A DNA stretch of 64,000 bases from an uncultured Clostridia bacterium (GTDB lineage Bacteria > Bacillota > Clostridia > Christensenellales > Borkfalkiaceae). A program made the position numbers and the translations under genes. Location of the stretch: NCBI GenBank assembly GCA_934254825.1, contig CAKQMB010000015.1:1950-65949 (forward strand). Reading direction: 5' to 3'. The notes beneath the pieces are model-generated. The model was given only the letters and a program-made list of their open reading frames with translations, was not told the DNA's origin and did no database searches. Below are positions 27,625 through 42,656 of this stretch, one piece after another (positions within the stretch are counted from its first letter, which is position 1; each line of letters begins with the position of its first letter).

Positions 27625-27653
27625 TTGACAAGGTGAACAATTCGTGTTATAAT
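27625..27653 (+). promoter_or_regulatory. perfect consensus sigma-70-type promoter of the SipW/TasA-like operon
   Basis: TTGACA, 17 nt (aggtgaacaattcgtgt), then TATAAT. It is followed by an approximately 110-nt 5' UTR with two short GC hairpins (GGGCgaagtctGCCC and CGGCGGGaaaCCGCCCG). Confidence 0.65.
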
Positions 27654-27768
27654 GCTATTATAAAGACAATCGGATAGTGGGCGAAGTCTGCCCGAGTCCG
27701 TTTTCGGGTGAAAAGCAAATAATACGATCGACGGCGGGAAACCGCCCGAATGATAAAAGAGGATATTT

Positions 27769-28302
27769 ATGAGAAGAAAAATAGGATATATTCTTACCAT
27801 AGCCGTTGTCGCAATGACGGTAATCGGCGTGTTGCTATGGTTCAATATTAAGGACGAAGGCAACCTTAAAGATAAAACGACCGTTACTTTCAACGGAGAA
27901 ACGACAAAAACGTTAAAAGCGGAAATAGCGGGCTTTTATCCCGGGAAATCTGCCGATTACACGATAGAAATATCGGATAAAGGCGCGGCGGATTACAATG
28001 TTTCACTCGTTTTCAGAAAAAACGGGGATGTCGAACCCGAGAAAAACACGCTCGGAAATTATCTGAACGTGACTATCGTCGCCGGGGACGTTACGATCGA
28101 AAAGAACCTTAACGAGCTTTTCGGCGGAGAAAAGATAAATCTCGGTCGCAATTCGCAGAAAATAACGATAACTTACGCGATGCCGCTCGAAATCGGCAAC
28201 GAAGCTCAGGGCGCGGAAACGAGATTTTTCATCGATCTGACTGCCTCGGAAAACGAAAACGACGGTAATTCGGCATCGGCACAAACAGAAAAGGGGGAGT
28301 AA
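27769..28302 (+). CDS. N-terminally TM-anchored TasA/camelysin-fold protein lacking the SipW-cognate cleavage motif (TapA-like anchor candidate)
   Basis: MRRKIGYILTIAVVAMTVIGVLLWF TM with no GT(Y/F)AxF(S/T)D motif. Core motifs FYPGKSADYTIEISDKGAADYNVSL and GNEAQGAETRFFIDLTASE parallel TasA LKPGDK..F.F.N.GSL and NKYQGNSIKLQFSFEATQ. Confidence 0.7.
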   Translation: MRRKIGYILTIAVVAMTVIGVLLWFNIKDEGNLKDKTTVTFNGETTKTLKAEIAGFYPGKSADYTIEISDKGAADYNVSLVFRKNGDVEPEKNTLGNYLNVTIVAGDVTIEKNLNELFGGEKINLGRNSQKITITYAMPLEIGNEAQGAETRFFIDLTASENENDGNSASAQTEKGE

Positions 28303-28306
28303 AATA

Positions 28307-39497: not shown

Positions 39498-39642
39498 GAA
39501 ACATATTATTCGACAGAATAATAAAAAACAGAACTGATTTCGGAGGGTTTCGGGTTGTCCGAAACCCTCCGACAAAAAAAGAACATTTGATAAAGTTTTA
39601 TATAAAGGTTGTTGTTATATAAACTTAAAAGGGGTTGAATTC

Positions 39643-42576
39643 ATGAAAAAGAAAATAATCTTGTCGGCGATCATGTCGATAGCTCTTTGCGTGAGTCTGA
39701 TTGCGGGCGCGACGTTCGCGATTTTCACGTCGGAGAGTAAAGTAAATATCGCCGTCACAAGCGGTAAGGTGGACGTTGTTGCAACGATCGACGAAACGAG
39801 CGTTAAAACAAAACAACTCTATGACACTGAGTATACAGACGGAAAAGATCGTATGTATCAGGGCGAAGTCGAATTCACGGAAAACGGTCTGAAACTTAAC
39901 AAGTTTCTTCCCGGCGACGGAATTAAATTCGATATCGTCGTTAAAAACAACAGCAACGTAGCCGTTAAATATCGCACGGTTATCGGTTGCGACAGCGATA
40001 CCGGTCTTTTCGGCGGTCTTCATTTTTATGTAAACGAAGCGCTTTTCGGCGGTTCCACGGCTGTTTCCGCATACGAGACGATCGAGCCGAATTCCGACGA
40101 CGTAATCGTTTCCGTGATCGTCGAGCTTCCCGAGGAAGCGGGCAACGAATATCAGGATACGTCCTGCACGGTTTATTTTAAAGTAGAAGCAATTCAGGCT
40201 AACGCGACCGTGGAGGAAGTCCCCGCGGACGTTCTTGCGATTTACAGCGCACAGGATCTTAAAAACTTCGCAAAACAGGTAAACGACGGCACGCTCGACG
40301 CTTCGTACAGCGAGATTAAGCTTATGAGCGATATCGACCTCGACGGAGAAAACTGGGCGCCTATCGGCGTTTCCACGGCTCGCGCTTTCAGAGGCGTTTT
40401 CGACGGAAACGGAAAAACCATAAGCAATCTTAAATCGACGAAATATTCTTTCCTTTCGGGATCGGCGGATTATGCTTACGGCGTAGGTCTTTTCGGAAAC
40501 GTCGTTAGCGGAACGGTTAAAAACCTCGTGATCGAAAATGCCGATATCGGCGGGGATTACACGGACGACGGACACGTTCTTTACAGTGCCGTAGGTATCG
40601 TGGCGGGTTACAGCTACGGTGATTCCGTATTCGAAAATATCACGATCAGAAATTCCGCGGTAAAGGCGCAGACGAAAGTCGGCGCGATCGTAGGTCTCAA
40701 CGCGGACGCGAACAAAACGACTAAAATAGTAGATTGTAAAATCGAAAACGTAACGGTTAAGGGTAATTATTCCTATTCGCTCGTTGCGGGGCTTGTTCTC
40801 GGCGGTTCGACTATCGATATGAGCGGCACGACCGTTTCTTCGACTTCCAAAACGGAATATTGGGAATCGGAAATATCCGAGTTCGAAAAAGACGGTTCCG
40901 AGCTTGAAATCGACGGTTATGTCTGGACTTTAAGCGGCGGTGTATACTGGATGCTCGACAATAATAACGCCTGGGCGGTTCAGAGAGGAAACGGCGCGGT
41001 TTTAACCGACGGTTATCTTTACGATTGCGTGGTTTATACAAGCGCGACCGATAAAAAAGAATATCTTTCTTCTGCGAACGGCGAGATTTACGCTTACACG
41101 GCGGCAAACTTGCAGGCAATGTCCGGTAAAGACGAACTTGCAGGCAATACCGTTAAGCTTATGGCGGATATAGACCTTGAAAACGTCGAATGGACGGCGG
41201 TTGCGATCAACAAGCTCACGTTCGACGGCAACAATAAAACTATCCGTAATCTTAACGTTAAGGGTAAAAAGAACGTTGGTCTTTTCGGTACCTCTACGAA
41301 CTGCATTATTAAAAATCTTATCGTAGACGGAGCAAACGTCGAAGGCATAAACCACGTCGCGGTAATCGCGGGTGACGCGCTTTGCGCCAAAATCGAGGGT
41401 TGTACCGTTAAAAACGCCAAAATCGTTGCGAGGACGGCAAAGAACGAAAAAGACGAGGATGACGACGGCGACAAGGCGGCGGCGATAGCGGGTTATCTTT
41501 CCGCAGAACGCGACGCTTGGGTTAAGGATTGCATTGCCGAAAATATCGAAGTAACGGGTTATCGCGATGTCGGCGGTATCGTAGGTTATGCAAATTCTGC
41601 GGCTGTCGTTACGGGCAACAAGGTAAACGGTTTGAAGCTTACTTTGGATAACACCGCAAATTACAAGAATTACACGACGATTGCCCAACACGACGTAAAT
41701 CCGATAATCGGCGAATACAACAACGGAACGCCCGACGACAGCAATACTTACGAAAATTATTCGTTCAGAGAAATGCTTGCGGACGGACTTTATTCCGATG
41801 AAAGTAATTACTATATCGAAAATGCCGACGGACTTATGGCTATGAATGCCGTTTTCCAGAAATTCGGACAGGCTGAGAATATTTATTTCAGCGACAAGTC
41901 CATCAACGTTATGGCGGATATAGACGCAACGGGTTGCGAGTGGGAAACGGTAAATCTTTCGACCAATTCGACGGATAGCAACGGCTTTACTTTCAACGGC
42001 AACAATCATACTATCGCAAATCTTACGATTGCGGGCAAAAACAACACCAATGTCGGAGCCGGTTTATTCAATATGACTTCGAATAACGGTACGGGTACGG
42101 CACCGATTATTAAGGATATTACTTTCGATAACGTAACCGTTAACGCTTCCGGACATTATCATGTAGGCGTTATCTGGGGCGAGTGTTACGGCGACCTGAT
42201 TCTCGAAAACGTTCACGTTAAAAACAGCTCGGTTACGGGACAGTGCAATGTCGGCGGTCTTGTCGGAAGAAACGGCGAAAGAAATAACAAAATCACATTC
42301 AAAGATTGCTCCGTAGAGAATACGAAGGTTACTTCTGTCGGCGGCGGAGATCCCGCAGGCGCTTCGGCGTTCCTCGGAATGGCATGTAAAGTCGGTACGG
42401 CAAGAAATATCGACCTGGTGTTCGAAGGAAACAACGTTGCAACGGGCAACACTTTGGTTTCCGCAGAAGATCACACGGGCGGCGGTATCTACGTTAAGGC
42501 AGAAGTTGTGGGACAAAATTGGGTGTCTGCCGAAGTCGTTGACGAGTTTGAAAATTATAATTCACAATCCGTGTAA
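39643..42576 (+). CDS. SipW-cognate-leader TasA-fold N-module fused to a GLUG-motif repeat region (977 aa)
   Basis: LIAGATFAIFTSESKVNIAVTSGKVDV; LPGDGIKFDIVVKNNSNVAVKYRT; AGNEYQDTSCTVYFKVEAIQ. GLUG-like rungs follow: GVGLFGNVVSGTVKNLVIENADI, VGLFGTSTNCIIKNLIVDGANV, VGGIVGYANSAAVVTGNKV, NVGGLVGRNGE..FKDCSVENTKV. Confidence 0.85.
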   Translation: MKKKIILSAIMSIALCVSLIAGATFAIFTSESKVNIAVTSGKVDVVATIDETSVKTKQLYDTEYTDGKDRMYQGEVEFTENGLKLNKFLPGDGIKFDIVVKNNSNVAVKYRTVIGCDSDTGLFGGLHFYVNEALFGGSTAVSAYETIEPNSDDVIVSVIVELPEEAGNEYQDTSCTVYFKVEAIQANATVEEVPADVLAIYSAQDLKNFAKQVNDGTLDASYSEIKLMSDIDLDGENWAPIGVSTARAFRGVFDGNGKTISNLKSTKYSFLSGSADYAYGVGLFGNVVSGTVKNLVIENADIGGDYTDDGHVLYSAVGIVAGYSYGDSVFENITIRNSAVKAQTKVGAIVGLNADANKTTKIVDCKIENVTVKGNYSYSLVAGLVLGGSTIDMSGTTVSSTSKTEYWESEISEFEKDGSELEIDGYVWTLSGGVYWMLDNNNAWAVQRGNGAVLTDGYLYDCVVYTSATDKKEYLSSANGEIYAYTAANLQAMSGKDELAGNTVKLMADIDLENVEWTAVAINKLTFDGNNKTIRNLNVKGKKNVGLFGTSTNCIIKNLIVDGANVEGINHVAVIAGDALCAKIEGCTVKNAKIVARTAKNEKDEDDDGDKAAAIAGYLSAERDAWVKDCIAENIEVTGYRDVGGIVGYANSAAVVTGNKVNGLKLTLDNTANYKNYTTIAQHDVNPIIGEYNNGTPDDSNTYENYSFREMLADGLYSDESNYYIENADGLMAMNAVFQKFGQAENIYFSDKSINVMADIDATGCEWETVNLSTNSTDSNGFTFNGNNHTIANLTIAGKNNTNVGAGLFNMTSNNGTGTAPIIKDITFDNVTVNASGHYHVGVIWGECYGDLILENVHVKNSSVTGQCNVGGLVGRNGERNNKITFKDCSVENTKVTSVGGGDPAGASAFLGMACKVGTARNIDLVFEGNNVATGNTLVSAEDHTGGGIYVKAEVVGQNWVSAEVVDEFENYNSQSV

Positions 42577-42606
42577 TTAAAAAACGAAGAAAAAATCTTG
42601 CAAAAT

Positions 42607-42656
42607 AAAAGACTTGCATAAAGGATAAAGTTATCCGTTGTGCAAGTCTTTTTTTG
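42607..42656 (+). terminator. intrinsic terminator closing the SipW/TasA-like operon
   Basis: AAAAGACTTGCA-n22-TGCAAGTCTTTT followed by TTTTT. Confidence 0.75.

Follow-up and report, generated by a model that had tools for sequence, protein, structure and literature searches.

In a 64,000-nucleotide stretch of DNA from an uncultured human-gut Clostridia bacterium of the Borkfalkiaceae (contig CAKQMB010000015.1; the whole stretch is hereafter called the window), we identified a single operon of ~15 kb, in which nine open reading frames (ORFs), g1–g9, lie on the + strand and span positions 27769–42576. The predicted products include a signal peptidase of the Sec11/SipW type and a series of proteins with TasA-like N-terminal modules (N-modules), five of which continue into large C-terminal regions, here called passengers. 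With moderate confidence, we propose that the operon encodes the parts of a TasA-superfamily surface filament, which would be assembled by donor-strand complementation and would display beta-helix adhesins. What was established directly is the set of genes, their homologies and predicted folds, a synteny that is conserved among loci, and a cargo that is modular. The genes are as follows.

27769–28302, + strand: g1, 177 amino acids (aa), transmembrane (TM) helix and TasA-like core
28307–29212, + strand: g2, 301 aa, predicted SipW/Sec11-type signal peptidase I
29483–30175, + strand: g3, 230 aa
30312–30944, + strand: g4, 210 aa, TasA-like subunit without a passenger
30992–32509, + strand: g5, 505 aa, TasA-like N-module and beta-helix passenger
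32624–34531, + strand: g6, 635 aa, N-module, predicted g5-like beta-helix and C-terminal CxF-rung block
34628–36970, + strand: g7, 780 aa, class-B N-module and GGxF/CxF-rung passenger
37164–39497, + strand: g8, 777 aa, class-B N-module and CxF(N/E)xC-rung passenger
39643–42576, + strand: g9, 977 aa, class-B N-module and predicted Pectate_lyase_5/GLUG-like beta-helix passenger

An AGGAG-like ribosome-binding site precedes each of the nine ORFs, and the intergenic gaps measure 4–270 nt. The sequence of the window is contained unchanged in a metagenome contig of 75 kb (ENA ERZ27287532), and an independent gene caller run on that contig predicted these nine genes as well. The caller placed the start of g8 at 37194, whereas we place it at 37164, a position favoured by a repeat at the 5′ end of the gene (D2).

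All six proteins g4–g9 have a basic N-terminus and a hydrophobic segment; next come a cleavage site, T-(Y/F)-A, and a stretch rich in aromatic residues. Their cleavage motifs (↓, predicted cut) are AGTYA↓LFSDS in g4, GGTYA↓WFTDT in g5 and g6, and AGATFA↓IFTSE in g7–g9. A first-pass annotation of this DNA, made from the sequence alone, had read G(G/A)T(Y/F)A in all six leaders; the leader and the cleavage site are present in each, but g4 reads A-G-T at the start of the motif. Behind the leaders, the cores contain an S/AG(T/K)(L/V)xV strand and the blocks PG...N.G..V.Y and GN.YQ......(E/L)A.Q. The TasA blocks that the same annotation had noticed in these genes (SGTLxV, PG...N.G..V.Y and N.YQ...EA.Q) indeed align in all six proteins, and they align in g1 as well.

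The profile searches that had been suggested, with Peptidase_M73 and the model of the SipW-cognate leader, also matched the N-modules. Pfam Peptidase_M73 hit the N-terminal part of g4, g5, g6, g8 and g9 (E-values from 3e-5 to 7e-4), with 24.3 bits in g4, above the cut-off, and 22.9 bits in g8. TIGR04088 scored above its cut-off in g4 (23.6 bits), g5 and g6 and just under it in g7, and the matches of both models fall on the leader and the first strand. Against solved structures, a profile of the seven window modules (A1) ranked TasA first (8aur and 5of1; E 2e-3), with AbpX next; these matches run through the C-terminal NxYQG..F.EA.Q block. Compared by hhalign with full-length Bacillus subtilis TasA, A1 reached a probability of 96.7% (E 4.6e-10), in an alignment that takes in the leader, the donor strand and the PGD..N.G block; the C-terminal part of the TasA sequence used agrees with the solved-structure chain. 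An AlphaFold2 model of g4, built from 26 aligned sequences, of which 20 were database homologues and six were the other modules of the window, reached a mean predicted local distance difference test score (pLDDT) of 85. Its top Foldseek match was the fibre form of TasA (8aur; E 4e-4, probability 1.0, TM-score 0.43), followed by donor-strand pilins (the PapG pilin domain, FimG and CfaB), AbpA and the Sulfolobus thread. These lines of sequence and model evidence converge, and they give moderate support to the assignment of the N-modules to the TasA superfamily. The seven TasA-fold proteins counted in the first-pass annotation would be g4–g9 and, as the seventh, g1 with its atypical core.

In the AlphaFold2 models of g4 and g5, low confidence within the mature N-module is confined to the residues that directly follow the predicted cut, and this post-cleavage strand is left unstructured in the monomers (residues 32–39 in g4 and 25–41 in g5), a behaviour that would fit a strand without a place in the monomer. 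Mean identities between large paralogues of the same locus (n = 152 pairs) were 0.83 for the leader, 0.72 for the donor region and 0.39 for the core, as against 0.59, 0.59 and 0.40 for pairs from different loci. In the large fusions, constraint is strongest on the leader and on the first 24 mature residues, both of which are matched within each locus; these 24 residues are the most conserved segment of the secreted protein. We infer polymerisation by donor-strand complementation because the donor region is conserved, the N-terminal strand is unstructured in the monomer models and sortase-anchored TasA-like subunits occur in related loci.

The within-locus likeness is also visible at the DNA level: the paralogues resemble one another much more closely in their 5′ parts (ribosome-binding site, leader and donor strand) than elsewhere. 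Identity is 93% over the first 300 nt of g5 and g6 (30981–31280 and 32613–32912) and 78–89% over the first 148 nt of g7, g8 and g9 (34637–34784, 37164–37311 and 39643–39790). This pattern suggests gene conversion, or else selection to fit a common partner, for example SipW or an acceptor groove. The window contains three classes of donor strand, namely those of g4, of g5 and g6, and of g7–g9, the donor region of g8 being 96% identical to that of g7. In BsaA of Clostridium perfringens, an isopeptide bond is formed by an N-E-K residue triad. A lock of this type was considered here, and an Asn is present in every donor strand, although its position is not conserved.

From its sequence, g2 is a Sec11/SipW-type signal peptidase I. 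The catalytic residues are intact, with Ser69 in SGSMEK, His133 in THRVV and Asp152 in a GDN box that follows the His box; the Ser and His boxes had been recognised in the first-pass annotation, and Ser69, Met70, His133 and Gly151 proved invariant in all 47 SipW-like proteins of the related loci. The protein matched the NCBIfam SipW model (E 2e-20), scored just below the cut-off of TIGR02228 (signal peptidase I, archaeal type; 47.9 bits, E 1e-12, cut-off 51.85) and obtained 73 bits against the Bacillus SipW equivalog, the cut-off of which is 190. Its best solved-structure matches were human SEC11A and SEC11C, in an alignment that spans the His and GDN boxes; the GDN box aligns with that of SEC11A, and the second Asp of Sec11 corresponds to Glu158 of g2. 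A ~50-aa insert separates the Ser and His boxes. Two TM segments (residues 28–46 and 198–216) are present, which corrects the earlier statement that the only membrane anchors are the N-terminal TM segments of g1 and g3. Residues 217–301 (28955–29212) form an 85-aa charged, Gly/Ser/Glu-rich cytoplasmic tail, in which K227, E229 and E241 are kept in 43–45 of the 47 family members; this tail may have a second, non-catalytic role.

The first gene of the operon, g1, has a TM segment at residues 5–23 and a core that is matched at 27.6 bits by an N-module hidden Markov model (HMM) built without it, with the HMMER filters off. The match covers HMM positions 61–204 only, that is, the core without the leader and donor part. 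At the cleavage position, where g4–g9 read T-x-A, g1 reads VLL↓WFN, with Leu or Trp at -1, and it appears to have neither a donor strand nor a cleavable site. Type I signal peptidases require small residues at -1 and -3. Because g1 has no small residue at this position, its N-terminal segment is probably an uncleaved signal-anchor, which makes g1 a candidate for an acceptor-only membrane anchor. By the tests that we ran, g1 is not a homologue of TapA. In the product of g3, an N-terminal TM segment is followed by a Pro-rich, acidic linker, by a domain rich in Lys and Glu, and by a basic tail. It had no Pfam or NCBIfam match, and among the related loci its homologues were found only in three, L006, L007 and L008. 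In agreement with the first-pass annotation, C-terminal TM segments, SLH domains and LPXTG sorting signals were absent from all nine window proteins; the sole LPxTG-like string, at residue 191 of g8, lies inside the N-module.

The passengers of g5–g9 are 300–790 aa in size. In g5, the N-module (residues 1–180) is joined by an acidic linker (181–187) to a region (199–505) that was confidently modelled as a right-handed beta-helix (pLDDT above 90 in the passenger and 83 overall), as had been suspected. With the whole two-domain g5 model, Foldseek returned weak and mixed matches (best E 5e-3), which included donor-strand pilins, AbpA, pectate lyases and the Lactobacillus reuteri SRRP adhesin. The BFVD library of viral structures added only generic phage beta-helix and tailspike-like matches. 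The passengers consist of shared pieces: g6 is 50% identical to g5 over residues 1–362, its residues 464–635 match residues 316–491 of g8, and g7 is 32% identical to g6 over residues 1–414, while g7 matches g8 and g9 over the N-module. Only weak pentapeptide-like matches were obtained for the g7 passenger, and that of g8 had a weak beta-solenoid match (Adeno_E1B_55K, E 9e-4). Searched with phmmer against solved structures, the passengers of g7, g8 and g9 had no match. PF20585 (Pectate_lyase_5, 'putative pectate lyase-like adhesive domain') matched g9 at 28.9–30.2 bits, above the cut-off of 24.3, and g5 at 14.1 bits. The GGxF and CxF(N/E)xC rungs described earlier are present; a match to PF07581 (GLUG) was obtained for g9 only and, at 15 bits, lies below the cut-off of 20.5.

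Passengers of the g9 type are also mounted on other proteins. Homologues were found behind three N-terminal SLH domains (P0303), behind Mfa2/DUF6562 fimbrillin-like modules of Bacteroidota (P0385 and P0356), and behind Flg_new repeats, Big_2 repeats and TasA modules (P0339). Mfa/FimA-type fimbrillins are subunits of type V pili, which are likewise assembled by strand exchange. The presence of this passenger on several non-TasA modules indicates that one cargo is mounted on different surface-attachment handles, which is what a handle-plus-cargo reading of the operon predicts and which bears out the modular cargo that the first-pass annotation had envisaged. No catalytic family was matched by the passengers of the window or by those of 75 non-redundant related fusions, and we rejected an enzymatic function for the passengers on this ground; the enzyme-like role that had been suggested for the cargo is unsupported.

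Related loci are numerous. A scan of one genome per species of GTDB yielded at least 550 matching stretches, of which 79 loci were kept (designated here by L numbers). These include loci of Oscillospiraceae, Ruminococcaceae, Acutalibacteraceae, Lachnospiraceae, Faecalibacterium prausnitzii and Butyrivibrio crossotus, as well as the cultured Yeguia hominis (NSJ-40, L010), Lentihominibacter faecis (BX16, L020) and Brotomerdimonas butyrica (L024 and L027). At the protein level, g5 has >6000 database homologues, nearly all full-length among the 120 listed, some of which bear the name 'SipW-dependent-type signal peptide-containing protein'. A larger N-module profile built mostly from g4 homologues (A3) matched 12,101 protein clusters (50% identity) at E ≤ 1e-3; the best 150 of these are almost all stand-alone g4-like proteins of ~210 aa, and the number therefore describes the size of the family and not the frequency of fusions. 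A combined ORF and HMM scan revealed a recurrent gene order in 81 independent loci, namely a small TasA-like gene (~180 aa), sipW and 1–8 large fusions. Linkage of sipW to at least two large TasA fusions, a pattern that had been proposed as a check, is common. In all 155 complete fusions of these loci (median 515 aa, maximum 1091 aa), the N-module is located at the extreme N-terminus; 146 of them retain the cleavage/donor motif, and none of the 155 has a C-terminal anchor. The Pfam matches in the passengers of the 75 non-redundant fusions were confined to beta-helix families (Beta_helix, 9; Pectate_lyase_5, 4; NosD, 2; GLUG, 1; M26_N, 1). Hundreds of species of gut Firmicutes share this operon design.

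The first gene of most related loci belongs to a family that we call X1 (e.g. L002:7769–8659, L004:6061–6843 and L010:6132–6959). X1 proteins have a TasA-like core with PGD and GNEYQ blocks, which scores 10–22 bits against the N-module HMM with the filters off, and 23 of the 29 non-redundant first genes of these mainstream loci encode a C-terminal (S/P)PxTG sorting signal, a TM segment and a basic tail. The (S/P)PxTG signal is of the type that clostridial sortase B uses. Judged from these features, X1 looks like a sortase-anchored base subunit, and a wall-anchored TasA-like subunit argues for cell-attached filaments over soluble enzymes. The lineage of the window (L001, L006, L007 and L008) has no X1 and carries g1 and g3 instead. 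We rejected g1 as an orthologue of X1 (~3 bits), and g3 likewise as an orthologue of X2, an accessory family to which it is unrelated. X2 is encoded downstream in the related loci (24 non-redundant members; e.g. L002:19129–19863 and L004:11680–12405) and has an N-terminal TM segment, a basic region and an internal segment that resembles a SipW-type leader (…CLCG.SWA…). Directly upstream of the cluster, 9 of the related loci have a gene for a tyrosine recombinase and 12 have one for a TetR regulator (e.g. L004:4130–5242 and 5419–6030), and these neighbours hint at phase variation or mobility of the cassette.

From these results we infer filament display as the best-supported mechanism. The proteins g4–g9 would be exported by Sec and held at the membrane by their SipW-type leaders; SipW (g2) would then cut after T-(Y/F)-A and free the conserved N-terminal stretch of ~24 residues. 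The freed stretch would serve as a donor strand that enters the open beta-sandwich of a neighbouring module, as in TasA, BsaA, ABP and Tafi filaments, and donor-strand links of this kind would give rise to short mixed filaments of TasA-like modules. The passengers of g5–g9 would hang on short acidic linkers along the filament or at its tip and would form a panel of adhesin-like, probably glycan-binding, surfaces. The passenger-less g4 is a candidate shaft or adaptor subunit, and g1 would act only as an acceptor, closing the filament and fastening it to the membrane, a role that would be taken in related loci by the sortase-anchored TasA-like protein. An operon of this design probably builds adhesive surface fibres.

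Several observations weigh against this proposal. The likeness to TasA is moderate: the Pfam matches cover only the first ~48 residues, the Foldseek match is modest (E 4e-4, TM-score 0.43), and profile A3, when compared with solved structures, did not recover TasA (E 0.92), so that the sequence link rests on A1, the hhalign comparison and Pfam. The window contains no wall anchor. The match of g1 to the N-module HMM appears only with the filters off, its anchor role depends solely on the non-permissive residue at the cleavage position, and its homologue in L008 retains a cleavable TYA↓L. The passenger folds of g6–g9 are linked to the beta-helix only by homology and weak matches. Lastly, the one large protein of a SipW operon that has been studied so far, the 70-kDa BsaC of C. 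perfringens, was recovered as a secreted monomer (PMC11580942).

A more far-reaching form of the filament model, which we put forward tentatively as a possibility, is a bottle-brush fibre in which every subunit bears its own beta-helix. Assembly of such a fibre would be chaperone-free, cleavage by SipW at the membrane would permit the next addition, growth would be terminated and the fibre anchored by an uncleavable TasA-like subunit that its signal sequence keeps in the membrane (g1) or, in related loci, by a sortase-linked one, and the matching of leaders and donor strands within each locus would keep the paralogues compatible; the terminator would then be a Gram-positive counterpart of PapH/FimI. 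If this were true, the fibre would represent a major undescribed adhesion organelle of gut Firmicutes, Faecalibacterium included.

Among the alternatives to the filament model, the one that survives best, though we consider it doubtful, is that the fusions are soluble secreted beta-helix proteins, either polysaccharide-active enzymes or free adhesins, with the TasA-like N-domain acting as a non-polymerising module for SipW recognition, carriage or folding and the operon as a secretion cassette. The absence of wall or C-terminal anchors from the window proteins and the secreted monomeric state of BsaC (PMC11580942) are consistent with this alternative, as is the passenger fold, since the right-handed beta-helix is the classic fold of pectate lyases and depolymerases. 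However, neither the window proteins nor the 75 related fusions matched a catalytic family, the matches being confined to generic Beta_helix and NosD and the 'adhesive' Pectate_lyase_5. In addition, the conservation of the first 24 mature residues far exceeds what cleavage needs, and the fusions are accompanied by passenger-less and sortase-anchored TasA-like subunits.

It is also possible, but in our judgement unlikely, that the shaft is built from the small subunit only (g4 here, the ~184-aa type elsewhere) and that each fusion, in the manner of FimH/PapG or TafC, forms one alternative tip in single copy, which implies that one cell builds fibres with different tips. In 28 of the fetched loci a small passenger-less subunit is encoded directly upstream of sipW, the three donor-strand classes of the window could set an order of assembly, and tip proteins of varied folds are predicted in AbpX and Tafi loci. 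On the other hand, every large fusion keeps both a donor strand and a full acceptor core, with no sequence feature that would restrict it to one end, and many fusion genes stand alone at a distance from small-subunit genes (e.g. L017, L032, L059 and L074); stoichiometry is not readable from sequence. A released biofilm-matrix or spore-surface scaffold like TasA, in which the beta-helices would cross-link matrix polysaccharide, is very improbable: TasA and BsaA are matrix proteins, TasA was originally described as spore-associated, the entry 5of1 is named 'Spore coat-associated protein N', the window has no wall anchor, and the host lineage sporulates, with SpoIIE adjoining the cluster in L004, but the promoter is of the consensus vegetative type, the mainstream loci have a sortase-type anchored subunit and g1 contains a membrane helix.

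The filament model can be placed among known systems. TasA fibres assemble by donor-strand exchange (PMC9674648), which TapA starts by donating its own N-terminus (PMC10151520). As in B. subtilis tapA-sipW-tasA, a dedicated Sec11-type SipW is encoded here between a small accessory gene and fibre subunit genes, the cleavage motifs are alike (GGTWA↓AFND in TasA, GGTYA↓WFTD here), and the SGTL, PGD..N.G and NxYQG..F.EA.Q blocks and a jelly-roll core are held in common. The TasA operon, however, encodes one cargo-free subunit of 261 aa, whereas the window has six leader-bearing paralogues with smaller cores (~140–180 aa), five of them with beta-helix passengers.

The bsa operon of C. perfringens (sipW-bsaA-bsaB-bsaC), which makes BsaA polymers, is a further parallel in that it combines a clostridial sipW with several TasA-like paralogues and one large, probably SipW-dependent protein, BsaC (PMC11580942). 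In the model proposed for BsaA, donor-strand assembly takes place at the membrane, where the leader of the newest subunit keeps it tethered until cleavage by SipW, and the authors suggested that several paralogues per operon give mixed filaments (PMC11580942). BsaC differs from the fusions described here in having a vWA domain and is not described as a TasA fusion, and the bsa operon is without beta-helix cargo. The archaeal Tafi/AbpX loci likewise encode a dedicated signal peptidase, pilins both major and minor, tip proteins whose folds vary, and anchors (PMC12337348; bioRxiv 10.64898/2026.01.04.697558). Their anchor TafF consists of one TM helix and a jelly-roll domain, and TafC is a two-domain tip protein (PMC12337348). 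In its predicted layout g1 resembles TafF; no homology between the two emerged. The Tafi subunits, unlike those of the window, are exported by Tat in archaeal hosts, and a single tip protein stands against the five cargo-bearing paralogues here.

The adhesins FimH and PapG are also built from an Ig-like, strand-complementing pilin module fused to a separate binding domain, and the pilin domain of PapG was among the top structural matches. That domain is C-terminal in FimH and PapG and N-terminal here; FimH and PapG depend on a periplasmic chaperone and on an usher in the outer membrane, and they have no donor strand, which is present in every fusion here. The g9 passenger, in turn, is homologous to the GLUG/Pectate_lyase_5 adhesin domains of SLH proteins, of the N-region of IgA1 protease and of Bacteroidota Mfa-type fimbrillin fusions, in which SLH, LPXTG or lipoprotein fimbrillin modules provide the attachment that the N-terminal TasA module would provide here.

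The first-pass annotation had presented this kind of display system as functionally undescribed, which overstated its novelty. Operons with multiple TasA paralogues and possible mixed filaments have been discussed (PMC11580942), and so have the tip, anchor and minor subunits of TasA-family loci (PMC12337348; bioRxiv 10.64898/2026.01.04.697558). Full-text literature searching yielded no publication that describes a TasA module fused to a beta-helix passenger. The latest survey, of AbpX, retained proteins of 100–350 aa only, by which fusions like g5–g9 were filtered out: g1 and g4 fall inside this range, and g5–g9 (505–977 aa, with a second large domain) fall outside it. Length filters of this kind have concealed much of the TasA superfamily.

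If the filament model is right, TasA-type filaments would be a modular display platform beyond a plain matrix scaffold, and many abundant Clostridia of the human gut, the carriers seen including Oscillospiraceae, Ruminococcaceae, Lachnospiraceae and F. prausnitzii, would present variable panels of 1–8 beta-helix adhesins. This bears on how non-flagellated, little-studied commensals attach to mucus, plant fibre and one another. The system is tractable, being compact (15 kb), with clear predicted cleavage sites, and present in cultured strains. Cargo placed C-terminally on a self-assembling TasA-like module could also serve, under the same model, as a template for engineered living materials.

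The signals that delimit the operon, and two further elements between its genes, are listed below.

27625–27653, + strand: sigma-A-type promoter, TTGACA, 17-nt spacer and TG-extended TATAAT -10 (12/12 match)
27654–27768, + strand: 5′ leader, ~115 nt, with two small hairpins
29397–29462, + strand: double-hairpin element copy 1, 66 nt, g2–g3 gap (direct repeat D6; fold z -3.6)
37035–37100, + strand: double-hairpin element copy 2, 66 nt, g7–g8 gap (repeat D6; 79% identical to copy 1)
42607–42655, + strand: intrinsic terminator, long hairpin and then a U run (-27.7 kcal/mol, z -7.5)

Sequence reading, a promoter scan and hairpin folding all agreed with the earlier description of nine same-strand genes flanked by one promoter and one terminator. 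The promoter at 27625 is the sole 12/12 match in a scan of 27000–43500, and both of its hexamers and the upstream A/T tract are kept in L006 and L007, the human-gut (Hadza) 'uncultured Clostridia bacterium' assemblies that were the nearest genomes among the matches listed. The operon is probably expressed in growing cells. A riboswitch or other leader RNA before g1 was rejected, as Rfam gave no match at gathering or relaxed thresholds and the fold was not significant (z -1.3). A promoter-like site with a 10/12 match (GTTACA-18-TATAAT, 29283–29312) lies in the 270-nt gap preceding g3, and g3–g9 may on this account also be transcribed separately from g1 and g2.

The two D6 elements occupy the two largest intergenic gaps of the operon (g2–g3 and g7–g8). 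Their first hairpin, GAAGAGGTACCTCTTC, is the same in both copies, while the second varies in sequence with its pairing retained. Within the window the palindrome occurs only in copy 1 and at 37040, and among the fetched loci the element was found only in the window and in its closest relative, L007. It might be a site of RNA processing or stabilization, or a partial terminator that sets subunit ratios. On the - strand, long ORFs (461–663 aa) lie opposite the passengers at 30965–32350, 32510–34084, 34898–36859 and 37584–39575; these are most likely not real genes and would result from the repetitive codon content, with its bias, of beta-helix genes.

The GC content of the operon is in line with that of the flanking DNA, and the flanks consist of ordinary chromosomal genes, namely those for LeuRS, a YitT-family protein, MazF, a helix-turn-helix (HTH)-NadE fusion, TraX, tRNAs and an AraC-type regulator. 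The MazF/PemK toxin gene (24659–25012) is followed directly by a gene for a glutamine-dependent NAD synthetase (25023–27344; CN_hydrolase and NAD_synthase domains), which carries an N-terminal Xre-type HTH, an unusual fusion in a place where an antitoxin could be expected. A second large surface protein of 1649 aa is encoded at 48606–53555; it combines a signal peptide with seven Listeria-Bacteroides (Flg_new) repeats and, at the C-terminus, a TM anchor, and the same repeat type also precedes some homologues of the g9 passenger.

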